Part shown: piece by piece, positions 35 to 55,300 of the stretch
Numbering within the stretch: the first letter of the stretch is position 1
How the letters are laid out: the number at the start of each line of letters is the position of its first letter
Virus record (IMG/VR): IMGVR_UViG_3300033143_003628
Coordinates: 1-55,307 of that record
DNA length: 55,307 bases
Source of the DNA: a virus
Taxonomy: Duplodnaviria; Caudoviricetes
Reading direction: 5' to 3' (one strand)
The notes under the pieces: model-generated
Seen by the model: the letters and a program-made list of their open reading frames with translations, nothing else
The model's database searches: none
What the model was told of the DNA's origin: nothing
Position numbers and translations under genes: made by a program

Positions 35-505
35 TTGTCACAAATGGTTCGGTTACTAATGACCAATACTAAATGGAATTCGTTGGTTTGTGAATGGCTT
101 GTGAAGTATTTGCAGAATCCAAATCTTTTCGATAGTAGGGGAACGGGATTGATAAGACGTATAGGTGGCGAGTTGCTTGTGAACGACCAGGCACTTTCGG
201 ACGGATGGGAATTATATTTGAAGACCAAACAGGAGTGCGAGACCGCGAAGATCGGTGCAGGTTTGCGAGCGATTTCCGGAAAAGATCGGAAGCAGTTGAG
301 ATTTAAGGGTCGCCGGATAAGATATAGGGTCATCGATGTGAACCATTTAATTGTGTGGGCAAATCAATATAACTTTTGTGACAAAGAAACTCTTTTGGCG
401 AGCGTGCGAAATGAAATACCGAAGGATAAAGATGTAATAGATTTCGAAGGTAAACGAGCGGATATTTTTAAAAAGGAAAAGGGAAAGAAAAAAGAAGGGA
501 ATTAA
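35..505 (+). CDS. 3' part of a gene that probably starts before the window; possibly the C-terminus of a primase/helicase
   Basis: The frame is open back to the window edge and the TTG start has no clear RBS. The product guess rests only on context: no primase is seen elsewhere in the window. Confidence 0.35.
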   Translation: MSQMVRLLMTNTKWNSLVCEWLVKYLQNPNLFDSRGTGLIRRIGGELLVNDQALSDGWELYLKTKQECETAKIGAGLRAISGKDRKQLRFKGRRIRYRVIDVNHLIVWANQYNFCDKETLLASVRNEIPKDKDVIDFEGKRADIFKKEKGKKKEGN

Positions 506-506
506 A

Positions 507-656
507 ATGTCAGAAGTTTTAACATGTAAATGTGGTTGTCAAAGTTGGATAATTTCAAGCACTGTTGCTATGTGTTCAGAATGTAACCGTAGAGTTTTTT
601 TGCTAAACATTAGCCTTTTAAATGAAAAAATTGAAAAGGAAAGTGAACAAAAGTAA
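507..656 (+). CDS. small Zn-ribbon-like protein (49 aa, not in ORF track)
   Basis: Manual translation gives MSEVLTCKCGC...CSEC...EQK*. GAAGGGA RBS lies upstream. Confidence 0.6.
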   Translation: MSEVLTCKCGCQSWIISSTVAMCSECNRRVFLLNISLLNEKIEKESEQK

Positions 657-675
657 ATGAAAGGAATTTTCAGCC

Positions 676-891
676 ATGTCAACATCGGAAAAAGAAAAAA
701 TCGAGTGGACCTGCATTGAACCATATGTTTGGTTACTGCTTGTAAACTGTTCGCCCAAAGCCCTTGTTATTAAAGAAGCGCCGGACGTTTATACCGGGTT
801 CATTTTTAACGGGTGGTGCTGGCTTATATTAGCGCGGAAGTTTGAAACCGAAAATTTTGCAAAAGAGCATTTAACAAAAATTTTCGAATAG
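676..891 (+). CDS. hypothetical protein
   Basis: ORF preceded by the GAAAGGAATT leader. Confidence 0.65.
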   Translation: MSTSEKEKIEWTCIEPYVWLLLVNCSPKALVIKEAPDVYTGFIFNGWCWLILARKFETENFAKEHLTKIFE

Positions 892-901
892 GGGAACTAA
901 A

Positions 902-1141
902 ATGATAAAGGAAACAGAACTTATCGATGCCGTAAAAAGTCCTTTGAAAAAGTTTGAAAAAATTCAGATGGATTTGGCGGCGGATATTTCGGCACTGGAA
1001 AACGAAGTGCCTGGTCTTTATCATGGCACTATCGCCGGTGAAATGCAGCTGTACGTTCTGAAAACTCTTTTTGAGTTGTCCGAAGGGATCGCGGAGTCCT
1101 TGGCGGAAATAAAGGAAGATATTGAAAGGGTACAAAAATGA
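902..1141 (+). CDS. hypothetical protein
   Basis: RBS GGGG; ATGA overlap with the next gene. Confidence 0.7.
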   Translation: MIKETELIDAVKSPLKKFEKIQMDLAADISALENEVPGLYHGTIAGEMQLYVLKTLFELSEGIAESLAEIKEDIERVQK

Positions 1142-1479
1142 CAACTTTAAAACAACAGGTAAGTCAGCTAAATATTAAATTGAAAGACCACGAAAGACTA
1201 GCCAAAGCGCTTACTTTAGAAATTGCACAGAAGAATAAAGCGATTTCCGAACTGCATGACGAATTGGTCGCCGCAGAAAAGCGGAACACATCTTTTAATT
1301 TTGCATTTCAAAAGCTGCAGAAACTCTATGAAGACCGGCAGGAATATAATAGTTATGAAGATGTTCGAGAACTAAAAGCCGAAATGGAAGGGCAGCGAAT
1401 TCAACATGGACAGGACACCGTAGATCTAAGAGACACAATTGTGAAACTTGCGACGAGATTGGAAGCACAAGATGGGTAA
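1138..1479 (+). CDS. coiled-coil hypothetical protein
   Basis: Heptad-rich sequence; translationally coupled start. Confidence 0.7.
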   Translation: MTTLKQQVSQLNIKLKDHERLAKALTLEIAQKNKAISELHDELVAAEKRNTSFNFAFQKLQKLYEDRQEYNSYEDVRELKAEMEGQRIQHGQDTVDLRDTIVKLATRLEAQDG

Positions 1480-2068
1480 GTGTGCTGACTGTGAATTTTT
1501 AAGGCGTATAGGCTTAAGGTATTGGCGCTGCATTAGATACAATAGTGTCGATGCTGCAGAATACCCATTTGAGTGGTTTGAAAATACTGGATGTGTCACG
1601 TATTTTGCCGCCAAATTAATGAAGATGGAAACCTACGAATTAATAGGGACCGAATGTTTTCAGCACCCAGGAAAAATTTTAAGGCATCATAAGGACGGCG
1701 CGGAATGTCCGCACTGTTTTTCGCTGTTCATTATTAATCAACTTGGAGATCTTATTGAACTTAAATATTCGCCTGAAATGATATACACCAAGCCGGTATT
1801 AGTTACAAAGAATTATTGTGTGAAAAAACCGAAGGGAAAGAAAATGCCAAAAACACAAGAGGTAGAACAAATAGCAGATGCAATTATCACGGTGAAATTT
1901 TTAGTGAAAAATGTTTTGCTTGAAGATTTAGATAATACATCGATAGCATTATCTAGTAAGGGTTTGAATGGATCTAGTCGAGCGGTTTCTATTTTACACC
2001 GGTCGGCAGAATACAAAGCAAAAGTCACCTCTGTTTATTTAGATGAAGATTTGCTGGACGCGAAATGA
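1448..2068 (+). CDS. Cys-rich hypothetical protein (true start probably ~1472; possible internal start at MPKTQ ~1843)
   Basis: CxxC motifs; purine-rich RBS-like sequence before the internal ATG. Confidence 0.55.
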   Translation: MRRDWKHKMGKCADCEFLRRIGLRYWRCIRYNSVDAAEYPFEWFENTGCVTYFAAKLMKMETYELIGTECFQHPGKILRHHKDGAECPHCFSLFIINQLGDLIELKYSPEMIYTKPVLVTKNYCVKKPKGKKMPKTQEVEQIADAIITVKFLVKNVLLEDLDNTSIALSSKGLNGSSRAVSILHRSAEYKAKVTSVYLDEDLLDAK

Positions 2069-2268
2069 AAATTAAAAGCATTAAAAAAGGTGAGTACGGC
2101 ACCATGTCGAGCACCAAGGGAACGGGCTGCACTAATAGGAAAGCCGAAGCGGACGGCATCGCCGTCACATTAAATACCAAAGAAATTATCTGTGGTAGTG
2201 TTTTTATTTCCGCAGAACAGCTTGCCGATATGGGTTACTTTTATGCCGAAGAAAAGAAGGGGATTTGA
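2065..2268 (+). CDS. hypothetical protein
   Basis: Overlapping stop/start at both ends. Confidence 0.6.
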   Translation: MKIKSIKKGEYGTMSSTKGTGCTNRKAEADGIAVTLNTKEIICGSVFISAEQLADMGYFYAEEKKGI

Positions 2269-2696
2269 AAGTGAAAAATCGAAATCTAAAAAATAATGAC
2301 AACTGGGAAACTCCTTTAACATTGCTTAATGAATTAAATAATGAATTTGTTTTTGATTTCGATCCGTGCCCATTTAATCCTGATTTCGATGGGCTCACTT
2401 GTGACTGGGGCAAAAGAAATTTTATCAATCCGCCTTATACTCGAAAGTTGAAAGAGGCTTTCGTCAGGCGTGCGGCATGGTTTGCAAAAGGTGAAGGACG
2501 ACTTTGTGTTCTGCTTCTGCCGGTTAGCACTAGCACGGTTTTATTTCACGACGTTATCCTGCCGAACATTACCGAGCCCATTAGATTTTTGCGCGGGCGA
2601 GTAAAATTTGAGGGGATAAATACTTTTGGCAAACGGGTTACAAACAAATGTGACATGCATGATAGTATGATCGTCATCTTCGATGGAAGGATCTGA
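2265..2696 (+). CDS. dam: phage DNA N6-adenine methyltransferase (phage Dam family)
   Basis: DNWETP, FDFDPCP, NPPY catalytic motif and IRFLRGRVKF, all typical of phage Dam-family enzymes. Confidence 0.88.
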   Translation: MKVKNRNLKNNDNWETPLTLLNELNNEFVFDFDPCPFNPDFDGLTCDWGKRNFINPPYTRKLKEAFVRRAAWFAKGEGRLCVLLLPVSTSTVLFHDVILPNITEPIRFLRGRVKFEGINTFGKRVTNKCDMHDSMIVIFDGRI

Positions 2697-3021
2697 TATG
2701 ACAAAAACTTGTAAAAGGTGTCATAGTGTCATGGTTTCAAGCCTACTTACCGATGGATTCTATTGTCCCGAATGTGTCAAGCCGAAACATCCTACGGAAA
2801 TCGAAATGACTTTAAGAAATGTGAACGAGCACACAATGAATTTGATTAAGCAGCGACTGCAAACAGAAGGGGCAGAACCTTTTATGATAACGTGGGGTGG
2901 ATACAATGTTCTGCGCGAACTCGTATCCGCCTACGGTGATTTTTCCAGGATCGAAGCCGAGTATAGCAGCGGCGATTTGGGATACAATATTACCTTTCGG
3001 CTAATAGTAAGGGGTAACTAA
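2683..3021 (+). CDS. Zn-ribbon hypothetical protein
   Basis: CKRC...CPEC. Confidence 0.6.
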   Translation: MEGSDMTKTCKRCHSVMVSSLLTDGFYCPECVKPKHPTEIEMTLRNVNEHTMNLIKQRLQTEGAEPFMITWGGYNVLRELVSAYGDFSRIEAEYSSGDLGYNITFRLIVRGN

Positions 3022-3022
3022 A

Positions 3023-3235
3023 ATGACATTAAGTAAAGAACTAATAAAGGATGTCGACCGCGCCGGGTGTTCGGCATACCTTGAAACCGTTGATAGTACT
3101 GAACTTCCTGACGGCGCATGGTGGCAAGTATTGGAAGACGCAGTTACGCAGTACAACAAAGATTTCGAAGCAAATCTAGATCCAAATGACACGGTTCACT
3201 GGTATTTAAAAAATTTTAAGGGGGAACAAAAGTGA
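3023..3235 (+). CDS. hypothetical protein
   Basis: RBS AGGGG; coupled to the next gene. Confidence 0.65.
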   Translation: MTLSKELIKDVDRAGCSAYLETVDSTELPDGAWWQVLEDAVTQYNKDFEANLDPNDTVHWYLKNFKGEQK

Positions 3236-3705
3236 AAGAAATCAGAATAGAAATAATTGGCGATGACACAGATGAAATCAATAGCAATTTTAAATTGGCG
3301 ATGCAAGACCATCACGGCATATTATCGATAGACCTGGCCGAAAGAAATTTGGTTTATGATCATTACCTACTGTCCGAAATCAATTCCGCACCGGGTGAAT
3401 GCCGCGCAGTTTTTAAAGAGATGATAGAAATAATATCCGATACGGAAGTGATACCTGATTGTGATTCATGTCATCATAAGGACAAATGTGTCACGCATAG
3501 GCAAGTGCAGAAAGGTGTCATTACTTGGAGTGCACCTGCGACTTGTGACGAGTATATTAAGGAAGGTGACGAAACACCTTGTTACACTTGTGTTCACGAA
3601 GACACATGTGAAATTCCTAAAGTTATGAATTGTGGCTTTGTCACATGGGTTCCTGATTCTGTTTGTACAGAATATAGGCAAGACAAAAGGATGATTAGAA
3701 GATGA
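3232..3705 (+). CDS. hypothetical protein with duplicated Cys-rich module
   Basis: CxxCxH.DxC...V.TW....C.EY occurs twice. Confidence 0.7.
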   Translation: MKEIRIEIIGDDTDEINSNFKLAMQDHHGILSIDLAERNLVYDHYLLSEINSAPGECRAVFKEMIEIISDTEVIPDCDSCHHKDKCVTHRQVQKGVITWSAPATCDEYIKEGDETPCYTCVHEDTCEIPKVMNCGFVTWVPDSVCTEYRQDKRMIRR

Positions 3706-4181
3706 AAGAGCCAATTAAAATAAGATTAGAGGTTACTGGTGATGTGAAAGCGGGTCGAGCACTAAATCAAGCGGCCGCGCAGTTTCATGAAGGTAAAGGA
3801 ACATTGTCTATTATGTTCGAAGGTCTACCGATATATTATAGCGAAGTGTTTTTAAAAGATGTGTACACTACTGCAGATCCTTTTTGTAGCGGACATTTCG
3901 TGGAAGTGGTAGAGGCGGTAGAAGTACTTAAGTGTCCGCATTGTAATGAAACACATCCAAATGATGCCGTGCCGGAATCCTGTGCTCGAAAAATAATAGG
4001 GGTGTTAGGTGCGGAAGTAATCAATTCGGGTGCGGAAAGTCACATCGAAGAAATAGAACAAAAGTGTCATTGTGTTTTGTGTCAAATAGAAACAAAGAAT
4101 TGGTTACAGATGTTTGGCAAAAAGATATGTCACAGATGTGCAACCGAATTATATGATGTAATAAAACTTGAAAGGATGTAA
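3702..4181 (+). CDS. hypothetical Zn-finger protein, probable paralogue of the upstream gene
   Basis: Similar N-terminal domain; CxxC motifs. Confidence 0.7.
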   Translation: MKEPIKIRLEVTGDVKAGRALNQAAAQFHEGKGTLSIMFEGLPIYYSEVFLKDVYTTADPFCSGHFVEVVEAVEVLKCPHCNETHPNDAVPESCARKIIGVLGAEVINSGAESHIEEIEQKCHCVLCQIETKNWLQMFGKKICHRCATELYDVIKLERM

Positions 4182-4184
4182 AAA

Positions 4185-4454
4185 ATGACAATTGTACCAA
4201 GTAACCCAGGTAATTGTGACAGACCCATCGGCCCGGACTTTGATAATCGAGGTGGTGGCGCGAAGGAAATTGATTTCGAAAATTTGACTCGACTTCATAA
4301 GGCGCGGCTTCGACGAGATAGGATTCTGAGTGTCAAAGCCAAACTCGCCGGTACATTTGAGCCCGAGCCGGACGACTATGCTGACATGATGGCGGCGGAA
4401 GAGATGGAAGAGATGGAAGAGATAGAAGAGATGGAAGAAGCGGCGGCGGAATGA
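4185..4454 (+). CDS. hypothetical protein with acidic tail
   Basis: RBS GAAAGG; a 9-bp tandem repeat GAAGAGATG encodes EEM repeats. Confidence 0.65.
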   Translation: MTIVPSNPGNCDRPIGPDFDNRGGGAKEIDFENLTRLHKARLRRDRILSVKAKLAGTFEPEPDDYADMMAAEEMEEMEEIEEMEEAAAE

Positions 4455-4654: not shown

Positions 4655-4656
4655 AA

Positions 4657-7108: not shown

Positions 7109-7112
7109 AGAC

Positions 7113-7140
7113 TTGACACAGTGTGTCACTATGCTAAATT
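7113..7140 (+). promoter_or_regulatory. sigma70-type promoter with overlapping palindrome TGACACA-G-TGTGTCA
   Basis: TTGACA, 16-nt spacer, extended TGn-TAAATT; intergenic. Confidence 0.7.
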
Positions 7141-7169
7141 GCTAAATAAGGGAAAGTGAAGGTAAAAAA

Positions 7170-12569: not shown

Positions 12570-12703
12570 AAAGCGGAGTCGGTTAAGCGCCGATTCATTC
12601 ACACTAATGGAACAACGTACCTGGAGCAATAATGGAACAACGTACCTGGAGCAATAATGTATCAGGTATTTTCGCAGACCGACTCTGCTTTTTAGAATTC
12701 ATT
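12558..12703 (+). ncRNA. long RNA hairpin (~27-bp stem) enclosing a 25-bp tandem duplication
   Basis: Arms 12558-12589 and 12673-12703 are complementary; the three substitutions in the 27-bp core all form G-U pairs on the + strand. Confidence 0.55.
12605..12659. repeat. tandem repeat, 2.2 x TAATGGAACAACGTACCTGGAGCAA
   Basis: Two exact 25-bp copies plus a partial third. Confidence 0.95.
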
Positions 12704-12721
12704 TGAAAGGAAATTTCAGCC

Positions 12722-12947: not shown

Positions 12948-13490
12948 GTGCCATTTTATTGCGACAAATGTAAAAGTGATCCGCTACTCGCGGCACCTGG
13001 TATATGTCCCTTCGCTATTGAACATCAAACATCAAACATAGCATCTGAACAATTAATAGATTGGATTGATAAAGGAATAAGATTTTCCGACTGTATAAAA
13101 AGGTTCGGTTTAAAAATACCTGACTGGCAGAAAGGTATACTAAAGTTACCTAAGAAAAAAAGACCCGCGCCTAAAGCACTTAAGAAAGTTCTGCCTAAAA
13201 AATTTAACGTGACAAAAAATCATTCCGCGAAGTTTGACGGCGAACCTGTGACACATATGCAACTAAGAATACTTACGGCCATCGAAGAATTTTGGTTGCA
13301 AAATAAATATGGTCCGGTGCAGCGCGAGCTTAGTAGGTTGGGCGGTATGTCCAGGGGTTCGGCACTGTTCGAGCAACTTAGAGTACTGCGCGAGCGCGGT
13401 TTAATAATTCAGACCATGGTCGAAGGCCGAAGCATACAGCGAACTTTGCGGACAAGGCGCACAAATGTGACGGTGGAAATCACATGGTAA
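12948..13490 (+). CDS. protein with C-terminal LexA-type winged-helix DNA-binding domain
   Basis: T..QLRIL..I.......YGP..REL....G..S......L..L.ERGLI; no peptidase domain. Confidence 0.7.
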   Translation: MPFYCDKCKSDPLLAAPGICPFAIEHQTSNIASEQLIDWIDKGIRFSDCIKRFGLKIPDWQKGILKLPKKKRPAPKALKKVLPKKFNVTKNHSAKFDGEPVTHMQLRILTAIEEFWLQNKYGPVQRELSRLGGMSRGSALFEQLRVLRERGLIIQTMVEGRSIQRTLRTRRTNVTVEITW

Positions 13491-13657: not shown

Positions 13658-13690
13658 CAACACTAAAGTGACAACTCTAAAGTGACAACT
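13649..13690. repeat. 3 x 14-bp tandem repeat CTAAAGTGACAAC(A/T)
   Basis: Read directly from the sequence. Confidence 0.95.
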
Positions 13691-15391
13691 TTATTAGAAC
13701 AAATGATGGCGCGGACGGGCCGAACGAAAGTTCCGCAGTATGCGAAAAAATCTTTCGGGTATCGCGCCGTCGTTCAGCGTTCTGCCGAATACCTGCGGAT
13801 TGCAGCTCTGCCCACAAGGGAATGGGACACCGAAGCTTATACAAATGAATTGATACAAGTGTTAACTTCCGAGCTGAAGACGCCACAAGGAAATTGGACT
13901 TTAAACAAAATCCAGGCGGCGAGTATAAACGACATCATTTTATATGGCGGCGCTTTGCTGCCGGTAGGTGTAGGACAAGGCAAAGCTTTAATTTCACTTT
14001 TGACCCCCGTTGTTTTAAATGCCGCTCGGCCTGTTCTGTTCGTGCCCGCTTCACTGCGTGAGCAAACAAATGAAATAGTTCTGCCGCAAATGCGCAAGCT
14101 CTGGCAACTACATCCCGGCCTTAAGGTGATAGGTTACAGTGAACTATCATTAGAAAAAAATGCAGAAATGCTTTGGCAGCTGCGACCGGATTTAATTGTG
14201 TTAGACGAATGTGACGAAATTAAAAACAAAAGCGCAGGCCGAACGAAAAGACTAACTAGATATTTTCGAGATTATCCAAATACAAAATGTGTCGCCATGA
14301 GCGGGACCATTAGTAACAGATCATTAAAGGACTACGCGCACATTGCACACTGGTGTTTGAAACATAATTCGCCGCTGCCTTTATCTTGGCAAGAGCTGAC
14401 AATTTGGTCGGATGCTATTGACGAAAAGGTGCCGGACGAAAGACGAGTTGCGCCGGGAGTATTGGAGAACTTTTGTATTGAAGGAGAAAATGTTCGGCAA
14501 GGGTTCAGGCGCAGGCTAACTAGTACACCAGGAGTAATAGCTTCGGCGGCGGACGATCTTGGTACGGCGTTAAGAATTTTTAAATATGATCTAGATGTAC
14601 CGGGAATCGTTTGGGATCAAATAGAAAACATGCGTTCGACTTGGGAGACACCTAACGGTGAAACTTTTTCGGAAGCGATAGATCTGTGGCGACACATTCG
14701 TGAACTTTCATTGGGTTTCTTTTATCGATGGGACCCTTCGGCCCCGAGTGATTGGCTGGACGCGAGGCGAGAATGGAAGTCTTATGTTAGAGAAACTTTA
14801 AAAACAAATCGTAGGAATTTAGATACCGAACTACAAGTGTGGAACGAATGTGCTCGTACAGCTACCGTATTGAAAGCTTGGCAGGACTGGCGAGATATTA
14901 AAGACACATTTAAACCTAATCCCGTTGCCGAATGGATTTCGGATTTCGCTTTAAAGGTGGCACGAATTTGGTTATTAGAAAGGCGCTGGAAATCTAGAGG
15001 CGCGGGAATTTGTTGGGTCGAACATGTGGAGTTTGGCAGAAAACTTGCGGAAGTTTCTGGACTTCCTTATTTTGGTGCGGGTGATAGTAGTATTTTAACT
15101 ACGACCGAGCCTGCTATTATTGCAAGTGTTTCGGCACATGGCAAAGGCAAAAACTTGCAGCGATATAATAGAAGTTTAATTACGATGCCTTCGGCAAGTG
15201 GTAAAACCTGGGAACAGGTACTTGGTCGCCTCCACAGACAAGGGCAAAAAAGTGACGCGGTAATCTACGATGTATTTTTGCACGTGGACGAGCTGCAAAG
15301 TGCACTGGTTCAGGCGCGTGCGGACGCAATTTATTTAGAAGACACATTAGGTAATCGGCAAAAGCTAAATTATGCCGATATAGTTTTATGA
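13682..15391 (+). CDS. superfamily 2 (SNF2-like) helicase
   Basis: VGQGKA (Walker A-like), LIVLDECD, AMSGT, QVLGRLHRQGQ. Confidence 0.85.
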   Translation: MTTLLEQMMARTGRTKVPQYAKKSFGYRAVVQRSAEYLRIAALPTREWDTEAYTNELIQVLTSELKTPQGNWTLNKIQAASINDIILYGGALLPVGVGQGKALISLLTPVVLNAARPVLFVPASLREQTNEIVLPQMRKLWQLHPGLKVIGYSELSLEKNAEMLWQLRPDLIVLDECDEIKNKSAGRTKRLTRYFRDYPNTKCVAMSGTISNRSLKDYAHIAHWCLKHNSPLPLSWQELTIWSDAIDEKVPDERRVAPGVLENFCIEGENVRQGFRRRLTSTPGVIASAADDLGTALRIFKYDLDVPGIVWDQIENMRSTWETPNGETFSEAIDLWRHIRELSLGFFYRWDPSAPSDWLDARREWKSYVRETLKTNRRNLDTELQVWNECARTATVLKAWQDWRDIKDTFKPNPVAEWISDFALKVARIWLLERRWKSRGAGICWVEHVEFGRKLAEVSGLPYFGAGDSSILTTTEPAIIASVSAHGKGKNLQRYNRSLITMPSASGKTWEQVLGRLHRQGQKSDAVIYDVFLHVDELQSALVQARADAIYLEDTLGNRQKLNYADIVL

Positions 15392-15395
15392 AAGG

Positions 15396-15620
15396 GTGAA
15401 AGTGATGCGAGTATTCGAAGAGACTATTCCAGAAAAAAGAAAAAGTGATTTGCGTGTTTTGGTAGAAGTGAATACAAAAGAGGGAAAACTTTTATTAGAG
15501 ATATGTGAAAAAGCAATCAAAGCACACCCAAAGAAAAGTTCTTATAAAACTATGTTGAAAAAATTAGAAGAGATGCCTTGCTTTTTTATGTCAGATTTTG
15601 GGCGAAATAAAATTAAATGA
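15396..15620 (+). CDS. hypothetical protein
   Basis: Packed ORF. Confidence 0.55.
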   Translation: MKVMRVFEETIPEKRKSDLRVLVEVNTKEGKLLLEICEKAIKAHPKKSSYKTMLKKLEEMPCFFMSDFGRNKIK

Positions 15621-15901
15621 CACAAGTGTGCCCCAGTTGTTCAATGGATTATGACGATTTCCGCACCGGGTTTTGTTACGCAGATATTTATTCAATGTTC
15701 TGGTCTTACGATGACGACCCGAAGACATGGCGAAACAAAAGGCGCGGAAGTGTCTTAGGTAAGTGGCGCGAGCTAAAATTAAAAATGTGGGCAGAACACT
15801 TAGAGACCTGCAGGCAAACTGCTCCGGGGTGTATTCGCGCCGAACAGAAACCTATACCGATAACTTTAAATTTTTATGAATACGAAGGGGAAGGAAAGTG
15901 A
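15617..15901 (+). CDS. hypothetical protein with CxxC...HxxxC
   Basis: Coupled ORF. Confidence 0.6.
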   Translation: MTQVCPSCSMDYDDFRTGFCYADIYSMFWSYDDDPKTWRNKRRGSVLGKWRELKLKMWAEHLETCRQTAPGCIRAEQKPIPITLNFYEYEGEGK

Positions 15902-15902
15902 C

Positions 15903-16133
15903 ATGGGATACCACGACGAAGGATCACATATGGATTTTGAAGACGATGAAAAAATAGAGGTTGATTACATCCGAGTTGTTAAGGAAACTAAAAAGGCTTG
16001 GCTGTTTCTTTTGGACGACTCAGATCCTTTTGATCCTAATCAGGTTTGGATACCTAAAAGTCAAGCCGAAATAATTAGCGATGAAGTTTTTGAACTGGCG
16101 GAATGGTTAGTGGTAGAAAAGGATCTAGTGTGA
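15903..16133 (+). CDS. hypothetical protein (ET.KAWL...WIPKSQ motif family)
   Basis: Common small phage protein motif; GGAAGGA RBS. Confidence 0.65.
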   Translation: MGYHDEGSHMDFEDDEKIEVDYIRVVKETKKAWLFLLDDSDPFDPNQVWIPKSQAEIISDEVFELAEWLVVEKDLV

Positions 16134-16221
16134 CAACTGCCGAAGCCATAACGATTGTAGTTTTTTATTTGGTGCTGTTTCCTTTTATGGTTTGGCAGAT
16201 ATTGAAAGGACATAGAAAAAC

Positions 16222-16249
16222 TTGACACACTGACTTAGTGTGCTAAGAT
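16222..16249 (+). promoter_or_regulatory. sigma70-type promoter
   Basis: TTGACA, 16-nt spacer, TGn-TAAGAT, upstream of the putative SSB gene. Confidence 0.7.
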
Positions 16250-16314
16250 ACAGTACTCTAATTTTTAGAGTACAAAAGTAACGACCTAAAAGGTCGAGAA
16301 AGTGAAAGTGTAAC

Positions 16315-16878
16315 ATGGGAATTTTTGACAACACAGCACAGCAAAACCAAGGACAGCAAACACAGCAATCGCCGCAGACACAGCAGAACACCGGTCAGTC
16401 CGTATTTGATCGCGTAGGCACCGCGCCACCGCGCCGAGGCGGAACTTACATTTCGCCAGGTAGCTATCCGATCCTTTTCATCAATGCTTTGAAGATGATT
16501 AAAAACCGTTCAGGTGTAGATCTTTTCATCGCAGAACTTTTTGTAATCGCTTCGGAAACAGACGCCGTTCCAATGGGTGCAAAAGTGTCATGGGCACCGA
16601 GCTTTGCGCACGACCCGACTCCAACGGACGTGCGAACTTTTCTGGCGCAGGTAATGGGCGCACCGCTGGACGATGTAGATTCACAAGCGTGTCAATATGC
16701 GTGCAGCGCGGAAAATCCTTGCCATGGTAAATTGATCAAATGTGTCGCCACAAACGTTGTGACCAAAAGTGGCAACGACTTTACCAAATGCGAGTGGTAC
16801 ACAATTGGTGCAGACCTGCAGAGCCAATCGGCAGAACTGCTCGCCAAAGCTGGCGTTGACCTCAGCTCGCAACAGTAA
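16315..16878 (+). CDS. putative single-stranded DNA-binding protein
   Basis: Lies directly upstream of DNA polymerase, with its own promoter and terminator. The call is by synteny. Confidence 0.5.
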   Translation: MGIFDNTAQQNQGQQTQQSPQTQQNTGQSVFDRVGTAPPRRGGTYISPGSYPILFINALKMIKNRSGVDLFIAELFVIASETDAVPMGAKVSWAPSFAHDPTPTDVRTFLAQVMGAPLDDVDSQACQYACSAENPCHGKLIKCVATNVVTKSGNDFTKCEWYTIGADLQSQSAELLAKAGVDLSSQQ

Positions 16879-16890
16879 CTTTTAACCCTT

Positions 16891-16930
16891 AAACCCGAGC
16901 CCTTTCTTTTACTGGAAGGGTTCGGGTTTT
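16891..16930 (+). terminator. intrinsic terminator-like hairpin
   Basis: AAACCCGAGCCCTTTC...GGAAGGGTTCGGGTTTT. Confidence 0.7.
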
Positions 16931-16932
16931 AC

Positions 16933-16961
16933 TTGACACACTGTTCCACCTATGTTGATAT
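16933..16961 (+). promoter_or_regulatory. promoter for the DNA polymerase gene (perfect -35, weak -10)
   Basis: ACTTGACACACTG motif shared with the other promoters. Confidence 0.5.
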
Positions 16962-16977
16962 GTGATGGAGTAAAAAT

Positions 16978-18900
16978 ATGAAAGATGTTATTGCATTTGA
17001 TACTGAGACACATCTTTTTGGTCCTGCGAACCAGGCGCCGAAAATTGTTTGCCTGACTTATGCACAAGCTGAAGGTTCGGGAATAATAGTTAACAAAAAT
17101 GACATAGAGAATTGGTTGCATAGTCAACTTACACATACCGCACAAGGACATGTAACATTGGTAGGCCATTACACCGCCTACGATGCTTCTGTTATTATTG
17201 CGAACTTTCCTAAATTAAGACAGCTAGTCTTCGATGCCTATTCGTGTGATGGGATCACTTGTACCGGGATACGTGAAAAGCTTTTAGACATCGCTTTAGG
17301 TCAATTCAAATACCCTGTAGATTCACATGGTAAAAAACATTCGACTGGTTATCACCTTGCCGACCTTGCAAAAATTCGACTCGGACAGCACCTTGAAAAA
17401 GCAGATACTTGGCGCCTGAGGTATGCCGAACTCGATGGCGTTCAGCTAAAGGACTGGCCGCAAGATGCTATCGACTATGCGTTAAAGGATGCAGAAGTTA
17501 CATTTAACATGTATCGAAATCAAGCCGCCCGCGCCGAACAAATTCATTACGCCCTGCCTACGGAATACGAAGACACACGTGCGGACTTTGCATTAAAGCT
17601 TATGTCTGCCTGGGGAATAGAAACAGATGTGCCGCGAGTAAAAGATTTATGGAATAACACAGTCGATAAAATGCACATCATAGCGGAAGACCTGCAACAC
17701 ACCGGACTTATCGAAGTTGTTCCGCAAACTACCTTAGAAGATTCTGCGGGCCGAACGATTCTGCCACAGACAAAAAAATCTAATAAAGTTCTGCGCGGTA
17801 TGATCGAACAATATTATCCGGGCGATCCGCCTCGAACGAAACCGACTAGCAAGTTCCCTGACGGCCAAATTAAAACCGGTATCGAAGTGGTGCAAGAATG
17901 TGACAACGAAAAGTTACAAAGCATCGTTCAGTTTTCGAAGTTAGAAAAATTAACAAGTACTTACTTATCAAAAATGTTTAAACCCGTTCTGCACGCACGT
18001 TTCAATGGTATAGGTGCTGCAAGTAATCGCACCAGCTGTTCAAACCCTAACCTACAAAATCAATCTAAGTTGCCTGGACTGCGCGAATGTTTTGTGCCGC
18101 GTCCCGGCCATGTGTTCTGCTCGGTCGATTTCGATTCACAAGAAATGCGAACTCTTGCGCAAAGTCAAATTGATATTTGTGGCCGCAGTAAGTTGGCCGA
18201 ACGGTATCAGGCAGATCGGTACTTCGATCCGCACCTTGAATTCGCTGCAACGATGGCAGGGATTTCAATAGAACAGGCACAAAAGTTACTTACCGAAGGT
18301 GACGAAAGTATTCAAAAACTAAGGCAGCAAACGAAAATAGCTAACTTCGGATTCCCTGGCGGGATGGTAGGCCGGACTCTGGTCGGCTATGCTAAACCGT
18401 GGGGCATAGATATTACAACGAGTAGAGGTAACGAGCTGCGGACCGCATGGTTCCAGCAGTGGCCCGAGATGGAAATGTATTTCGAACATGTTCAAAATCT
18501 AATAGGTCCGGCAGATAGCGGAACGGTTATCATCCCGCAGAGTGGATTCTGGCGCGGCGATTGTGGATATACTAATTCAGCCAATACTTATTTTCAAACG
18601 CTCGCGGCACATGCCAGCAAGACCGCATTATGGGAAGTCTGTAAGAAGTGTTACTGTGGCGAAGGTTCGGCGCTTTATAACTCGCGCCCGGTTGTTTTTA
18701 TTCACGACGAAATTTTAACTGAGGTGCCAAAAGAGTTAGGGCACGAAGCAGCTTTGGAGATAGCTGAAATTTTTATTGCGGCACAAGAAAGGTGGACACC
18801 TAACGTTCCCGCCGCAGCTTCGGGAACTTTAATGACTTGCTGGTCGAAGAGTGCGGAAAAAGTTTTTGAAAATGGTCGATTGATTGCATGGGGTGAATAA
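16978..18900 (+). CDS. polA: family A DNA polymerase with 3'-5' exonuclease domain
   Basis: FDTET, YALKDA, NPNLQN, DFDSQEMR, RQQTKIANFG, FIHDEI. Confidence 0.93.
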   Translation: MKDVIAFDTETHLFGPANQAPKIVCLTYAQAEGSGIIVNKNDIENWLHSQLTHTAQGHVTLVGHYTAYDASVIIANFPKLRQLVFDAYSCDGITCTGIREKLLDIALGQFKYPVDSHGKKHSTGYHLADLAKIRLGQHLEKADTWRLRYAELDGVQLKDWPQDAIDYALKDAEVTFNMYRNQAARAEQIHYALPTEYEDTRADFALKLMSAWGIETDVPRVKDLWNNTVDKMHIIAEDLQHTGLIEVVPQTTLEDSAGRTILPQTKKSNKVLRGMIEQYYPGDPPRTKPTSKFPDGQIKTGIEVVQECDNEKLQSIVQFSKLEKLTSTYLSKMFKPVLHARFNGIGAASNRTSCSNPNLQNQSKLPGLRECFVPRPGHVFCSVDFDSQEMRTLAQSQIDICGRSKLAERYQADRYFDPHLEFAATMAGISIEQAQKLLTEGDESIQKLRQQTKIANFGFPGGMVGRTLVGYAKPWGIDITTSRGNELRTAWFQQWPEMEMYFEHVQNLIGPADSGTVIIPQSGFWRGDCGYTNSANTYFQTLAAHASKTALWEVCKKCYCGEGSALYNSRPVVFIHDEILTEVPKELGHEAALEIAEIFIAAQERWTPNVPAAASGTLMTCWSKSAEKVFENGRLIAWGE

Positions 18901-19397
18901 TGAAACTTTTAGCAATAGATCCAGGTAAGGCTACTGGGTGGGCGTTCTTTAATAATCAAAGTAAATTGGATGCGTGCGGAGTTATCGAAATAGATGCTGA
19001 TTTTACAAATACTAATCTTACAAATATTTTTGAAGGATTCAATTCAGCATACGAACCGGATCTGCTTGTGATAGAAATTCCACAAATCTATTCTGTTCGG
19101 CAGTGGAAGGGAGATCCGAATGACTTAATTGATCTGGCAGTACAGGCTGGTCAAATCATTGGAACCTTTTCTAGTACCGCAAACATAAAAAAGATTCGAC
19201 CTCACAATTGGAAAGGGAATCTGCCTAAAGAAATTTGTAACACTAGATCCCTTTCTAAACTCAGTTCAATAGAATCAATGGTAGTACAGAACGCACAAAT
19301 AATTTCTAAAAAGGGTTCGCGTAAAATGATAAAAACCCTGGCCCATAATATGCTCGATGCAATCGGGATCGGACTTTGGCAGCTGAAAAGGAGATGA
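18900..19397 (+). CDS. RuvC-like Holliday junction resolvase
   Basis: LLAIDPG..TGWA, VIEIP, HNMLDAIGIG. Confidence 0.8.
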   Translation: MKLLAIDPGKATGWAFFNNQSKLDACGVIEIDADFTNTNLTNIFEGFNSAYEPDLLVIEIPQIYSVRQWKGDPNDLIDLAVQAGQIIGTFSSTANIKKIRPHNWKGNLPKEICNTRSLSKLSSIESMVVQNAQIISKKGSRKMIKTLAHNMLDAIGIGLWQLKRR

Positions 19398-19404: not shown

Positions 19405-19617
19405 ATGACACCTACACCTAAACAAAATGTGACTTCAATACGACTTATTTATAATGGTCTGAAATCTAGACCCTATACAGTTCAAGAGCTGCAAGCGCTC
19501 ATTAAAGGAAGTCGTTCTACAGTCTACAGGTATTTACGTATACTTACAGAGTCAGGGGTAGAGGTTCGGCGCGTCGGGATGAATAGACCTACTCAATACC
19601 ACATAGAAAAAAGCTAA
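19405..19617 (+). CDS. small HTH DNA-binding protein
   Basis: TVQELQ....SRSTVYRYLRIL..SG. Confidence 0.75.
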   Translation: MTPTPKQNVTSIRLIYNGLKSRPYTVQELQALIKGSRSTVYRYLRILTESGVEVRRVGMNRPTQYHIEKS

Positions 19618-19664
19618 TGATTTTAATCCTTTGAAACCACTTGAAATTATTTCAATCAATTAAC

Positions 19665-19693
19665 TTGACACACTGTCTCAAGCGATTTATATT
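19665..19693 (+). promoter_or_regulatory. strong sigma70-type (early) promoter
   Basis: TTGACA, 17 nt, TATATT, with AT-rich upstream sequence. Confidence 0.85.
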
Positions 19694-19738
19694 TAGCTCA
19701 TAACACAGCGATTGCAAAACAGCGAAAGGCAAAACAAA

Positions 19739-51578: not shown

Positions 51579-51608
51579 ATCTGTACTCCTTTTATTTCTT
51601 GCATCTCT

Positions 51609-53015
51609 TTACGCGTTTGCATTAAAATCCCAGGGGCTCGAACGTGTGCCCGCTTTTGATAATGAAAAATCAAAGTTATAAATGTTCCCCGACATATGAT
51701 CGAGCGCTTGTGTCATCGTATCCACTGCGTCATCTCTTGAAGTATTGGGAAAGGCTGTGACATTATCGATGAAAGGTTCTGACCATGATGCGAGCTGTTC
51801 GGTCGGTACAAACACATTGCCCGCCTCTATCAGTCCTGACACAGATGCTAACCTTGCTTCTTTACTTCCTTTAGGTTGATAGGGGACGAGCCCCGGTACT
51901 GTGTCACAGAGTGTATCGATGACCGCTCGGCCATTCGCCTTGTCTTCTATTACCTTAGTAATTGCCTTGGGCCATTTGTGACTGAACACTTCTATTTTCT
52001 TTAGAGTCTCAGGGAAGTTTAAATTTTCTTCAATCTTATCTACAATGTACATATTAGATCCAATACGGCCCCAGACTTGACCACATACCAAACTATTCCC
52101 CGTCTTGCCAAAAGTCAAATCCCAACTCTGAATCATCTCTTCGAACTGTTCCGGCATAGTGTCGAAACGTTTGAACCAATCACGCTTGACCATATTACCT
52201 TCCAGCGGTGCCGGACGCTGTTGATAAAGACCTGCGAACATGTGTGAGCCCAACGTCTTTTTTATTTGAAGGAGAGCATCTGTGTCAAACCGCTCGGCAC
52301 ACAGCGCCGCACCCTCGGTCCTGCCTAACAAATCATTTGGCTCTGCAAGCGCAGGTAGTGAAATGACTTCCCAATCGTCCCCATGTTCAGCCATCAGCCA
52401 GCCCGATATATCCATTTCATGCCAGCGAGTCTGATCTATGATAACCGATCCACCTGGTTCCAAGCGCGTAAAAAAAGTTCCCTTGAACCAATCGATTGTG
52501 CTCTCTCTTGTAGTGGGTGACATCGCTTCGGCCCAGTCCTTATGTGGGTCGTCCAGAATTAACAACTGTCCCCCTAGACTAGTGAGTGACCCACCGACCC
52601 CTGCCGACCTCATACCGCCGCCCTCGTGAGTCTGCCAGTTCGACACCGACGACTTGTCACGCCTGACCCTTGTCCACGTCTCAGGGTTAAGCATAAACTC
52701 GTCACGCACCGCCAGACCCCACTTGGCAGCTACTTTATCGGAGTAGCTAGATAAGATCACATTATCCCAGGGACGCCAGTCTAAGTACCAGGCAGGGAGC
52801 CAGTGAGCTATTCCCTGCGACTTGCCGTGTCGCGGCGGAGCGTTCACGATGATACGAGCGTTCCCCTTTACTATTTTATTTTGGATGTACATGAGCACAA
52901 ACGAAAGCCAGGTGTATGGAATCCAGCCGCCCTTGCTCAAATGGTTAGCATACGTGGGTACTGTCATTCGCCACGTAGAATCACCAAGTGTACTACGAGA
53001 CTGAGCTGCCCTCAT
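51609..53015 (-). CDS. terL: terminase large subunit
   Basis: PPRHGKS, LILDDP.KD, TRWH, YQQ.P, SWD, IEDKANG, FP...DD.VD. Confidence 0.95.
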   Translation of the reverse strand: MRAAQSRSTLGDSTWRMTVPTYANHLSKGGWIPYTWLSFVLMYIQNKIVKGNARIIVNAPPRHGKSQGIAHWLPAWYLDWRPWDNVILSSYSDKVAAKWGLAVRDEFMLNPETWTRVRRDKSSVSNWQTHEGGGMRSAGVGGSLTSLGGQLLILDDPHKDWAEAMSPTTRESTIDWFKGTFFTRLEPGGSVIIDQTRWHEMDISGWLMAEHGDDWEVISLPALAEPNDLLGRTEGAALCAERFDTDALLQIKKTLGSHMFAGLYQQRPAPLEGNMVKRDWFKRFDTMPEQFEEMIQSWDLTFGKTGNSLVCGQVWGRIGSNMYIVDKIEENLNFPETLKKIEVFSHKWPKAITKVIEDKANGRAVIDTLCDTVPGLVPYQPKGSKEARLASVSGLIEAGNVFVPTEQLASWSEPFIDNVTAFPNTSRDDAVDTMTQALDHMSGNIYNFDFSLSKAGTRSSPWDFNANA

Positions 53016-53628
53016 TTGGATTCATTTTCCCTAAGAGTAAATTGACCGCATCCATCGCTTCGTCATCTTCGAGCAGCGGTGCAAGCGCTTCGCGCTGATC
53101 GGCCGCTGTGATCTGATGTCTTTCTTCTATAACTGTTTCAGGTTCGCCGCGACTCATACGTTCGAGCTTCATACCGGTCTCTATAAGTTTGCGAACATCT
53201 TTAGGTGCAATAGGTGTGCCCTCTTCCGACGCCTTTTTTAATCTGGTTAACCAACGTGTCAAAGCTCCCGCACCAAGAGCTTGCATCGACTTCGCAAGGT
53301 TCATATGCCGATCTCGCATACGTGACACACCTTCGAGCATCTTGCGGCGGCGTTGTTTATCGAGTGCGCGATCCCAGTCTGCGACACGTTCTGCCCAGTT
53401 CCAACGAACCGACCACTTCTCGTATTTGCGTGCAACTGTGTCAAGCTTTGCAAGCGAGCCGTCTCTTTTCCGTTCGAAATCAGCGGACTTGCGAAGCGTT
53501 CGGTCATATCCCATGTCACGATAAACTACAAAGGCTATCCATGACTTAAGGGGTTCACCAGGTTGCCGATCATATGTTTCACGGTCGGTTGCGCAAGTGA
53601 AAGGTAATATTCTTTTATCTGACATCAT
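52993..53628 (-). CDS. terS: terminase small subunit
   Basis: E....W.AF..YRD.G..R.L...WS.RW.W.ER...WD pattern; immediately upstream of terL. Confidence 0.65.
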   Translation of the reverse strand: MMSDKRILPFTCATDRETYDRQPGEPLKSWIAFVVYRDMGYDRTLRKSADFERKRDGSLAKLDTVARKYEKWSVRWNWAERVADWDRALDKQRRRKMLEGVSRMRDRHMNLAKSMQALGAGALTRWLTRLKKASEEGTPIAPKDVRKLIETGMKLERMSRGEPETVIEERHQITAADQREALAPLLEDDEAMDAVNLLLGKMNPNEGSSVS

Positions 53629-53646
53629 CTTAAATGTAACATTTGT

Positions 53647-54579
53647 TTACTTTCCCTGCAACAATCCAACAATATGTTCAGCAATCGCTTTCATAAAGTT
53701 TGGCGGAACACTGTTTCCCATTCGTGCGATCACTTGTTTATATGTACCTATAAATTGATAATCATCTGGATACGAAAACACTCTTTTAGTTTCATTTACA
53801 GACAAGCGCCTCGGTTCGTCAGGATGAAAATGACCAGAAGCAATGGTCTTTAAAACTGTTGGTGGTATCCTATACCAACTACAACGATAAAAACCAAAAT
53901 GTTCATAATGAGCTTGTCCTAACTTAGTTTCAAAATAATGCTCTTCATCAACTGTGCTTAATGGTTTACAATCACCTAACTCTTTCAAATCCTTTAACGC
54001 CTCTTTCAACAGAATCGGTTTTGTCTGTGGCTTTGGATGTGAAGGTTTAATTTCTAAATCCTTACGAATACCAATAAAAATCAATCGTGGCCGTGACTGC
54101 GGAACATTGTAATATTTCGTATTCAATATTCTTGCACTGACTTCATATCCACAAGCCTTCAATTCTTTTAAGCACTGAACGAAAATGATTTTCATTTTAC
54201 CTTTGACCATACCAGAAACATTCTCCATCACAAATGCTTTTGGCTGTAATCCCTGCAGAAGCCGAACATATTCCTTAAACAATTGATTTCTATTATCTGT
54301 AAAATCTCTTTTCCCAGAAATTGAAAATCCCTGACACGGCGGCGAACCGTCCAGAATATCTAATTCACCCGGTTGCAATCCGATTGTCTCTAAAACATTC
54401 GAAACAGACAGATCATTAATATCACCATGGTAAACATTTGTGTCAGGATGATTGAGCTTATACACTTCAACAGCATTGTCGTCCCACTCACAAACCAACA
54501 AAATTCTGCCACCAGCAAGCTTGTAACCCAAAGACGATCCGCCACATCCACTAAAGGTACTGACAACTGTGAAATTCAT
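53647..54579 (-). CDS. dcm: DNA cytosine-C5 methyltransferase
   Basis: FSGCGG, GSPPCQGFS, ENV, Q.R.R, GNSVPP. Confidence 0.95.
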   Translation of the reverse strand: MNFTVVSTFSGCGGSSLGYKLAGGRILLVCEWDDNAVEVYKLNHPDTNVYHGDINDLSVSNVLETIGLQPGELDILDGSPPCQGFSISGKRDFTDNRNQLFKEYVRLLQGLQPKAFVMENVSGMVKGKMKIIFVQCLKELKACGYEVSARILNTKYYNVPQSRPRLIFIGIRKDLEIKPSHPKPQTKPILLKEALKDLKELGDCKPLSTVDEEHYFETKLGQAHYEHFGFYRCSWYRIPPTVLKTIASGHFHPDEPRRLSVNETKRVFSYPDDYQFIGTYKQVIARMGNSVPPNFMKAIAEHIVGLLQGK

Positions 54580-55106
54580 TTGGGAAACTCGAATTCACAT
54601 TTGGGACACTTGCACATCTCAATATCGTCTGCAATCGATTCGTCATACTCCCTGCCAACATCGTCAGGAACATTTGTGTGCTCAATAATCTTTTTCAATT
54701 CGGTTTCGCTAAATCCCATTGCTTCAATAGATTCCAAATCAGAATTATTAACAAGTTGCTCAATTGCTTCTGCCAAAACCGTTTCGTCCCATTCAGCAAG
54801 TTCAGCGGATTTGTTATCAGCGATTGCATAAGACATTGCTTCCGTCGCATCTAAATCTTTTCTGCGAACTGCCACCAAAGTATTTGCATCGGTGTCAACA
54901 ATTTTGACATCTTTGAACCCGGCTTTTTTAGCGGCCTCCAGTGTTCCGTTTCCAGCTCGCACGACTCCATCCTTATCCACGAAAAGTGACCGGGCCGCGC
55001 CGAACTGCTTTAGCGATTTTTCTATTGCTTTGATGTTCTCAGCCGAGTGCTTCCTGGCATTATTTGGATCGGCAATTAATTCGTCTATTGAGATTGTTTT
55101 TGACAC
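54576..55106 (-). CDS. ParB/Srx-like N-terminal domain protein
   Basis: DP.NAR.H, SL..FG, AGNG..EAA, IADN...EL..WD, C-terminal CPKC. Confidence 0.85.
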   Translation of the reverse strand: MSKTISIDELIADPNNARKHSAENIKAIEKSLKQFGAARSLFVDKDGVVRAGNGTLEAAKKAGFKDVKIVDTDANTLVAVRRKDLDATEAMSYAIADNKSAELAEWDETVLAEAIEQLVNNSDLESIEAMGFSETELKKIIEHTNVPDDVGREYDESIADDIEMCKCPKCEFEFPK

Positions 55107-55129
55107 GCTTGAACTCCTTCCTAATTATC

Positions 55130-55158
55130 AAAATAGTCCTTTGTCACTAATGTGTCAA
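55130..55158 (-). promoter_or_regulatory. sigma70-type promoter for the packaging/structural arm
   Basis: Minus strand ACTTGACACA; TTGACA, 17 nt, TATTTT; RBS AGGAAGGAG downstream. Confidence 0.65.
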
Positions 55159-55300
55159 GTTATACGGGTGTCACAGGTAGAGGTGTGACGATGAAAGGTT
55201 AATAATAATAGGTGTTTATATACAAGTGTCACACTGTCACACCTTCAATATTAAAAAGTACTAGAGTATAAGTAAAAACAGGGTGTCACAGTGTCACACC
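55142..55300. repeat. cluster of TGTCAC(A) iteron-like repeats around AT-rich DNA; candidate origin or packaging site
   Basis: Exact TGTCACA at 55169, 55227, 55235, 55284, 55292; paired 18-mers GTGTCACA(C/G)TGTCACACC at 55226 and 55283. Confidence 0.7.

Follow-up and report, generated by a model that had tools for sequence, protein, structure and literature searches.

Short words of DNA that are repeated in a genome, or at its origin, are known from several systems. The ori and crr regions of phage P4 consist of octamer iterons (TGTTCACC) in direct and inverted orientation, which are bound by the C-terminal domain of the alpha primase-helicase, and we know of no genome-wide scatter of these iterons. 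In the case of the stoperators of cluster A mycobacteriophages (L5 gp71) and of the dispersed C1 operators of P1, the sites of one protein are found at a control region and at tens of other places, and these sites are 13–17 bp long, mostly intergenic and oriented with transcription. Other words are host-wide, like the uptake sequences and HIP1 in cyanophages, the latter being a perfect palindrome (GCGATCGC) that is over-represented in cyanobacteria and their phages and is shared with the host chromosome. The recognition words of primases, such as GTC for T7 gp4 and GTG for pRN1 ORF904, have 3–5 bases in the known cases and need no enrichment. Here we describe the word TGTSACA (S being C or G), and an array built on its core, in a stretch of viral DNA of 55,307 bp (hereafter, the window), which is the entire IMG/VR record IMGVR_UViG_3300033143_003628, a single contig with 43.7% G+C.

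According to the accessible part of a preprint (bioRxiv 10.64898/2026.10.17.759575), the origins of Staphylococcus aureus pathogenicity islands (SaPIs) have iterons oppositely disposed around an AT-rich region, a superfamily 3 (SF3) primase-helicase reads these iterons with its C-terminal winged-helix domain, and the self-loading SF3 primase-helicases PriRep5, Rep1 and Repbov1 of SaPIs and phage-inducible chromosomal islands (PICIs) go with an AT-rich region of around 300 bp that adjoins the helicase gene. In the window, TGTSACA is in large excess through the coding DNA, and the same core builds an origin-like array at the end of the record. Our preferred reading, held tentatively and with somewhat less than even confidence, is that the replication machinery of the phage itself recognises TGTSACA, or more exactly TGNCACA with T preferred at N, at the level of DNA, the scattered copies being weak sites for its own primase-helicase.

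Excess and shape of the word

An exact search of the whole window returned 63 copies of TGTSACA, 24 TGTCACA and 39 TGTGACA on the plus strand, at the same coordinates as in a preliminary description of this sequence, in which about 63 copies had been counted by eye and about 7 had been estimated to occur by chance. Dinucleotide-preserving shuffles gave practically this last figure (mean 7.02, standard deviation 2.39, largest 12, n = 100), an excess of around nine-fold. A shuffle that preserves the amino-acid sequence and the codon usage had been named there as the decisive check, and the enrichment persisted in it: third-base shuffles, in which the protein, the codon usage and all the dinucleotides are preserved, gave 24.1 ± 3.3 copies, with a maximum of 35 (n = 500). 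Lower expectations were obtained with synonymous-codon shuffles within genes (20.5 ± 3.1, maximum 29, n = 500) or genome-wide (18.4 ± 3.2), and with the permutation of codons within genes (13.7). Against the synonymous null, TGTSACA ranks first among all the strand-merged 7-mers, with a z of 12.7, and TGTAACA/TGTTACA, a comparison that had also been proposed, is at expectation (15 versus 13.5). With an order-2 Markov null, the top 7-mer of the window reaches a z of 18.6, versus 9–16 in five other complete phage genomes, in which the top 7-mers are triplet-repeat words or local arrays, and the median across 31 control loci was 7.3, with a maximum of 13.

In our own set of open reading frames (ORFs), which was obtained by greedy calling and covers 95% of the sequence without being a curated annotation, 55 copies are genic and eight are intergenic, the non-coding DNA amounting to around 2.5 kb in total. 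The genic copies are read as xVT (38), CD (9), xSQ or xSH (7) and CH (1), in such a way that all the frames noticed in the preliminary description do occur. The enrichment was 25 versus 3.9 and 13 versus 4.1 in the frames that place the three free bases at third codon positions, and around two-fold (17 versus 8.7) in the remaining ones. Among the 110 Val-Thr dipeptides, GTC-ACA, the most biased codon pair of the genome, was found 30 times versus 6.9 expected, and GTG-ACA 18 times versus 8.5, with a T preceding 25 of the 30 and 13 of the 18, respectively. As regards the 16 NNC-ACA pairs, GTC, GAC and GCC are enriched at least 2.5-fold (T also precedes 17 of 30 GAC-ACA and 10 of 14 GCC-ACA), GGC-ACA is weaker (12 versus 7.0, T before 5 of 12), and the ANC-, CNC- and TNC-ACA pairs have small counts, none of them above two-fold. 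The dipeptides themselves are also in excess (VT 110 versus 79.8, CD 25 versus 14.9). The bias in the choice of codons and the persistence of the excess when protein, codon usage and dinucleotides are preserved make it secure that the enrichment is selected at the level of DNA and not of protein, as had been argued from the variety of frames.

These data bear also on the explanation that there is no DNA reader at all, with translational codon-pair preference and the repeated Val-Thr-rich motifs of tail proteins producing the excess as a side effect. The xVT frame holds most of the excess as well as most of the genic copies, ten copies are in a single repeat-rich tail ORF, and the late, highly expressed half of the genome is the richer one, as this explanation would have it. 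However, the size of the excess is governed by the base that ends the codon before and by a G at the first codon base, the ANC-, CNC- and TNC-ACA pairs not exceeding two-fold; the other frames and both strand orientations are enriched too; eight copies fall in the small non-coding fraction; and when the ten-copy ORF and the array are removed, 48 copies remain versus 17.5 expected (maximum 26, n = 300). We thus consider it highly unlikely.

Regarding the shape of the word, the quasi-palindrome TGT(C/G)ACA of the preliminary description is indeed enriched, but its palindromic form did not hold. The comparison of one-base neighbours showed that T1, G2, C or G at position 4, A5 and C6 are required and that base 3 is free, TGNCACA being enriched for every N (observed/expected, T 63/20.3, A 44/16.9, C 24/9.3 and G 9/4.5), with S as the centre. 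Because base 3 is free, the word is better described as TGNCACA than as a palindrome, and the enriched word is this asymmetric one, with the preference T > A > C > G, while the quasi-palindrome may be incidental. Both orientations are present, with a mild bias towards the coding strand (sense to antisense, 33:22 for TGTSACA and 24:13 for TGACACA), so that the coding strand, which would be the template of the lagging strand if forks leave the array, has 57 versus 35 for TGTCACA plus TGACACA. A G at +10 from the first T, in the central-C orientation, was found at 40 of the 63 sites (21 of 25 in the main frame, 17 of 30 at other genic sites and two of eight intergenic ones), and codon phase explains it only in part.

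As a separate observation, four intergenic sigma-70-like promoters (7109–7169, 16134–16314, 16879–16977 and 19618–19711) overlap TGACACA, the word ranked second. They have in common an extended -35 element, ACTTGACACACTG (CAGTG in the first one), with a TAnnnT -10 around 17 bp downstream.

The origin-like array and its neighbouring helicase

The array at the end of the record has, in around 160–200 bp of non-coding DNA, five exact TGTSACA copies, an inverted GTGTGAC and one GTCAC variant. The GTSAC cores are located at 55143, 55170, 55185 (the inverted GTGTGAC) and, as two tandems with a spacing of 8 bp, at 55228/55236 and 55285/55293, with an AT-rich stretch of around 40 bp separating both tandems. 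Direct and inverted short iterons are thus disposed around an AT-rich stretch. The iteron has the form YGTCACAC, its core being that of TGTSACA, and it is unlikely that the word ranked first among around 8000 7-mers coincides with the core of the iteron by chance. The tandem GTCACAC-GTCACACC is invariant across the arrays of the window and of two other contigs, L259 (54% identical in the terminase large subunit, TerL) and L419 (82% identical over 44 residues of the helicase C-terminus). In these two contigs the homologous array is located between the helicase gene and the late operon, and in the lineage of the window the array is upstream of the helicase gene and divergent from the late operon. 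In the window itself both tandems run in the same direction, unlike those of L419 and L259.

A further observation concerns the genes around these arrays. At L259:4134-4330 and L419:3404-3568, the first late-side gene by the array is a small ORF that looks, by eye, like a ribbon-helix-helix (RHH) protein, and the window has no such gene there.

The record is not closed and ends 5 bp past the last iteron. The 5'-open ORF at its start (Table 1) is, from the second codon, 65% identical over 133 aa to residues 658–790 of the 822-aa DUF5906 (SF3 helicase) protein that flanks the array in L259, and it has 47 longer homologues, mostly of around 800 aa and with PF19263. The record is therefore cut inside a primase-helicase gene, in such a way that around 650 codons (around 2 kb, the N-terminal two thirds plus the promoter) are missing between its end and its start. 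The gene adjoining the array is that of an SF3 helicase with a primase domain and a C-terminal winged helix, the last 167 residues of which are in the record.

A structure model of this 167-residue piece (pLDDT 82.7) produced weak winged-helix matches in Foldseek, none of them at E ≤ 0.001. In a wide VIA structure search the first match was a Coxiella protein of unknown function (Z 6.3) and the Rep helicase of SaPIbov1 came second, through its C-terminal part (Z 6.2, rmsd 3.8, 97 aligned residues), ahead of many winged-helix regulators and winged-helix domains of ORC/Cdc6 (Z 4.5–5.8). The fold of a full-length homologue has an N-terminal PrimPol of the archaeo-eukaryotic primase (AEP) type, with matches to cyanophage S-2L PrimPol (E 7.4e-5) and to RepB' primase (E 7.6e-4), and an NrS-1-like helicase region. 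Searches of the PDB at the sequence level with the 569-aa helicase, the 390-aa Zn-ribbon protein and a primase-helicase profile gave no useful match.

A scan of viral contigs for tandem TGTSACA found at least 118 loci (L005–L122). Among the 118 listed, 66 have 5–13 copies within 500 bp, whereas such arrays were found at one of 120 and five of 50 loci for two control words of similar build. The array loci have 33–67% G+C and belong to several unrelated phage groups (L035:3352-3683, L074:12303-12642 and L049:1018-1286 are examples). Close neighbours are nearly always direct repeats, at spacings of 8 and 11–12 bp (77 of the 78 pairs spaced by 8 bp have the same orientation), inverted groups flank an AT-rich centre, and the consensus is cTGTCACAc; ten arrays from other phages that were written out all have direct and inverted iterons around an AT-rich centre. 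Iteron arrays with this core recur in many uncultured phages, as an origin-like element that is easily recognised. In the literature, we found no description of TGTCACA, TGTGACA or TGTSACA as a phage iteron or as an over-represented word, but only of GTSAC as a methylation motif of Helicobacter pylori.

The 214 ORFs flanking the arrays were grouped into 165 clusters, and the 150 longest representatives were scanned, the 15 shortest being left out. These 150 proteins include members of DUF5906 (10), VapE-like (8), Prim-Pol (3), PriCT_2 (3), DUF3987 (3), AAA_25 (3) and D5_N (2), in addition to large (6) and small (5) terminase subunits, figures to be read with no base rate for flank families in random phage loci. 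The arrays adjoin at least three helicase groups that are distinct by BLAST. A case of co-variation between iteron and helicase, the only pair found, is provided by Paenibacillus phage LunBun, whose VapE shares 58.6% identity with the VapE of G003, an array phage: the iteron of G003 is CTGTCACA, and LunBun, with three TGTSACA in 44 kb, has downstream of VapE (L282:6330-6490) an array of direct and inverted CTGCAACA iterons by an AT-rich stretch.

From the architecture of the array, its neighbourhood, this one case of co-variation and the SaPI precedent, we infer on good grounds that the array is a replication origin, which would be read by the C-terminal winged helix of the helicase as in the PriRep proteins of SaPIs. 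Arrays with the TGTSACA core could serve as markers of origins and for matching iterons to the C-terminal domains of helicases.

Candidate readers of the scattered copies

The preliminary description had proposed that a phage protein recognises the word across the genome, with the primase-helicase, a ParB-like protein and methylases among its candidates. The idea of a phage reader gains from the selection at the DNA level and from the tie to a cis-element of the phage, and loses the ParB-like protein and the methylases, as described below. The primase-helicase, which had been named first, is the best candidate, as the origin-like array beside its gene has tandem repeats built on this core. According to our preferred reading, the around 58 scattered copies would be weak sites for this same protein, recognised by its winged helix or as template by its primase domain, they would be kept by selection at around one per 0.9 kb, and they would help a self-loading primase-helicase to re-load or to prime along the genome. 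The passage from the protein that binds the array to the scattered copies is the weakest step of this reading, and one that we take with much caution, because these copies lack the flanks of the iteron.

If the primase-helicase does read them, the scattered copies would show how strongly the DNA preference of a replication protein shapes coding sequence, and the phage would offer a natural system to study where a self-loading SF3 primase-helicase loads and primes. A stronger version, in which around 60 iteron cores (around 140 as TGNCACA) are written into the genes, bending codon and dipeptide usage, for a programmed re-loading or priming around every kb on both strands, seems rather unlikely to us; if true, a virus would be programming the priming of its lagging strand by sequence, or initiating at multiple sites.

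Several results weigh against our preferred reading. The genome-wide scatter was found in none of 17 other whole records, none of which is known to share the host. The array phages G001–G005 (37–58 kb, complete) have 12–14 copies, with 0–3 of them outside of the array, and one of these, G001, shares with the window the polymerase, helicase and exonuclease genes plus a primase-helicase homologue. In G006–G010 (27–58 kb), which have a homologous helicase C-terminus, there are 0–3 copies in all, and G010, the closest one among the relatives found (82% over 44 aa), likewise has no scatter. The scatter is not a general property of the phages with this helicase family or iteron, and in 24 metagenome loci around TerL relatives TGTSACA was at expectation. 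Furthermore, the full iteron YGTCACAC is not enriched genome-wide (10 versus 8.3), and the scattered copies favour an A after the word (TGTCACAA, 31 versus 7.7) whereas those of the array favour a C. The fold matches of the helicase piece are middling (Z 5–6) and generic for winged helices. The early half of the genome (1–23700, plus strand) has 16 copies versus a shuffle mean of 8.3 (2x) and the late half (23701–55106, minus strand) 42 versus 10.9 (3.9x), a difference in enrichment between both halves. Finally, unrelated words are nearly as enriched, 2.5–3.9-fold versus codon-preserving nulls: GCAGAAC (47 versus 19–21) and GCCGAAC (36 versus 13–15), together CNGAAC-like, TCCGGCA (TCCGGCA/GCCGGAA, 31 versus 8–10) and CGCCGCC (32 versus 10–12), all of them in several frames and mostly in both orientations, which fits a general word dialect.

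In five records, L071, L087, L118, L005 and L048, the copies looked spread out, but they were at chance level over the whole records.

A word bias derived from the host, similar to that of HIP1, is the main and serious rival. The host genome would be rich in TGNCACA as a result of a repair, methylation or binding process, and the phage would have drifted or been selected to the dialect of its host, with the match to the iteron core being secondary or due to a host factor. Intragenic enrichment in several frames and in both orientations is the pattern of host-wide words, and the relatives without excess (46–82% identical in the helicase C-terminus, 54% in TerL) would be expected if they have other hosts. 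A strong dialect is indicated by the unrelated enriched words together with the near absence of many 6-bp palindromes (observed/expected, GAGCTC 0/9.4, GATATC 0/10.7, GCCGGC 0/14.5, GGTACC 0/6.9, GCGCGC 1/11.3, CGATCG 1/8.7, GGATCC 2/14.2, CCGCGG 2/12.7 and GTCGAC 2/9.7), a scarcity that looks like strong restriction avoidance; runs of AAAAAAA are depleted as well (24 versus 54). Against the host as a source, the top word coincides with the core of iterons that are conserved and belong to the phage itself, the sequence of the iteron seems, in the one pair LunBun and G003, to track the phage helicase and not a host, the enrichment differs two-fold between the halves of the genome, and the excess is absent from the 17 other whole records, none known to share the host. 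Taken together, we see this explanation as possible, if on the whole unlikely. Were the excess to mirror that of the host, its word would serve as a strong marker in predicting the host of this phage.

The 8-bp-spaced tandems, with their nearly constant orientation, recall the boxes of RHH repressors, such as the 8-bp boxes of MetJ and the WATCACW heptads of omega. Another DNA-binding protein of the phage might then read the word as a coat, silencer or regulator, the candidates being an RHH protein, a LexA-like or ArsR-like winged helix, and the ParB-like protein together with its methylase. Genes of these kinds in the window include an RHH-like ORF, an ArsR-type helix-turn-helix (HTH) and a LexA-type winged helix (Table 1), and by the arrays of L259 and L419 the first late-side gene looks like that of a small RHH protein. 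However, these RHH labels come from reading by eye; the RHH-like ORF of the window has no Pfam match, is 12 kb away from the array and stands beside a different, 25-bp tandem repeat; and neither BLAST clustering nor jackhmmer found a small protein family common to the array-bearing phages. The ParB-like protein, whose gene adjoins the array, has no Pfam match of its own, and its ParB/Srx N-terminal domain was recognised through its homologues (2328 in total), as many of the 120 matches listed carry PF02195. Having been named as a candidate in the preliminary description, it was discarded, as none of 80 viral loci of its family (646 kb) has more than two TGTSACA in 500 bp. A reader among these other proteins seems improbable to us.

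A fourth explanation is that the word is the target of a phage methyltransferase or of a GTSAC-type restriction-modification system of the host, accumulated through methylation-linked repair or self-marking. In fact, the phage encodes a C5-cytosine methyltransferase and a Dam-family methyltransferase-like protein, and enzymes of this sort typically discriminate S from W at the centre, as is seen here (63 versus 15). Type IIP systems do target GTSAC, as in the case of M.Hpy99II, with m6A as the product, according to the accessible part of the source (PMC3936762). Nevertheless, the methylases put forward in the preliminary description found no backing in the counts: the 166 GTSAC of the window versus 109.2 expected become, once the 63 and the around 20 expected in TGTSACA are subtracted, around 103 versus around 89, and the degenerate third base of TGNCACA breaks GTSAC. 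CpG is not depleted (odds 1.15), the putative products of deamination are not clearly depleted (TGTCATA 9/8.6, TATCACA 5/12.2), and the window has no signature of very short patch (VSP)-like drive or of CpG decay. The solved protein closest to the C5-methyltransferase acts on GpC, and the word has no GC; restriction targets, in addition, are usually avoided, as are the 6-bp palindromes here. The variable region of this enzyme is much shorter than that of its solved relative CmoX, and the Asn of its GNSVPP motif is retained at the place of Arg-350 of CmoX, which binds carboxy-SAM, so that we take it as a probable ordinary methylase. L259 has its ParB-like domain in one protein with an N6/N4 methylase, whereas the C5-methylase of the window is a separate protein. 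We judge this explanation to be very doubtful.

The features mentioned are collected in Table 1. The phage is of the contractile-tailed type, with plus-strand genes in the early or replication half (around 1–23.7 kb), among them those of a PD-(D/E)XK exonuclease, an SF2-like helicase and a family A DNA polymerase, and minus-strand genes in the late or structural half (around 23.6–55.1 kb), which encode terminase, portal, major head protein, sheath, tape measure and baseplate. No DNA match for the structural region was found in a collection of cultured phages, to which TerL is at most around 40% identical, and the best relatives of TerL, from viral, genome and metagenome contigs, are 53–54% identical. 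No tRNA genes were found in the window.

Two other observations were made on the gene content. A protein of the head module has a uracil-DNA-glycosylase-superfamily domain (residues 132–250) and an XkdF-type serine protease domain (388–520), a fusion that is unusual. In the early half, a perfect 25-bp tandem direct repeat is found directly upstream of the RHH-like ORF, after which comes the LexA-type winged-helix protein; the repeat and these genes are possibly an operator with its regulator.

Table 1. Features of the window and their coordinates
Feature	Position	Strand	Remarks
5'-open ORF, 167 C-terminal residues (winged-helix region) of an AEP-primase/SF3-helicase of around 820 aa	2–505	+	TGTSACA at 36 and 377
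Small Dam-family N6-adenine methyltransferase-like protein, 143 aa	2265–2696	+	PF05869, E 1.2e-13
Perfect 25-bp tandem direct repeat	12570–12721
RHH-like ORF, 70 aa	12722–12931
LexA-type winged-helix protein	12948–13490
Replication module: SF2-like helicase, 187-aa protein, PolA, 165-aa protein	13682–19397	+	Common to the window and the array-bearing phage G001
ArsR-type HTH	19405–19614
Tail-region ORF, 1052 aa	32539–35697	-	10 copies, all TGTCACA on the coding strand; some in repeated peptide motifs
Head-module protein, 544 aa	47539–49173	-
Terminase large subunit	51609–53015	-	Anchors the late operon downstream of the array; query for finding relatives
C5-cytosine DNA methyltransferase	53647–54579	-	Closest solved relative, phage GpC carboxymethyltransferase CmoX (8YF3, E 1.1e-54)
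ParB-like N-domain protein, C-terminal CPxC knuckle	54576–55106	-	First gene of the late operon, adjoins the array
Non-coding iteron array	55141–55307		Homologous to the arrays in contigs L419 and L259 (alignment)

Comparison with known systems

As with the stoperators, the word is found at a main region, the array, and at tens of further places of the genome, but the sites are only 7 bp long, 55 of the 63 are intragenic, and both orientations occur (33:22). Like HIP1, it is a short word that is many-fold over-represented within genes, in several frames and in both orientations; it differs in being the asymmetric TGNCACA and not a perfect palindrome, and CGATCG was found once versus 8.7 expected. 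The complement of TGNCACA contains GTG, and a density of around one per 0.9 kb also recalls the words of primases, whereas relatives with a homologous protein lack the excess. A five-base core that acts as a unit regardless of its flanks, as GTSAC does for type II restriction-modification enzymes and methylases (Tsp45I, M.Hpy99II), is not what is seen in the window. Regarding ParB-parS, a ParB-type domain is present, but the family does not co-occur with the site at any of the 80 loci. The P4 system has another iteron and another class of primase.

SaPI origins differ from this array in that the iteron of the window is YGTCACAC and the array is upstream of the helicase gene and divergent from the late operon. 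The core is moreover scattered around 58 times through the coding DNA, a scatter that the accessible part of the preprint does not describe for SaPI origins. The likeness lies in the architecture, since the TGTSACA arrays are made of direct and inverted iterons around an AT-rich centre, often beside SF3 primase-helicases, as the same part of that source describes for SaPIs. In addition, the model of the ORF at the start of the record resembles the C-terminal part of SaPIbov1 Rep, and the LunBun iteron CTGCAACA is close to the SaPI5 iteron TGCAAC(C) given in the accessible part of the preprint (bioRxiv 10.64898/2026.10.17.759575).

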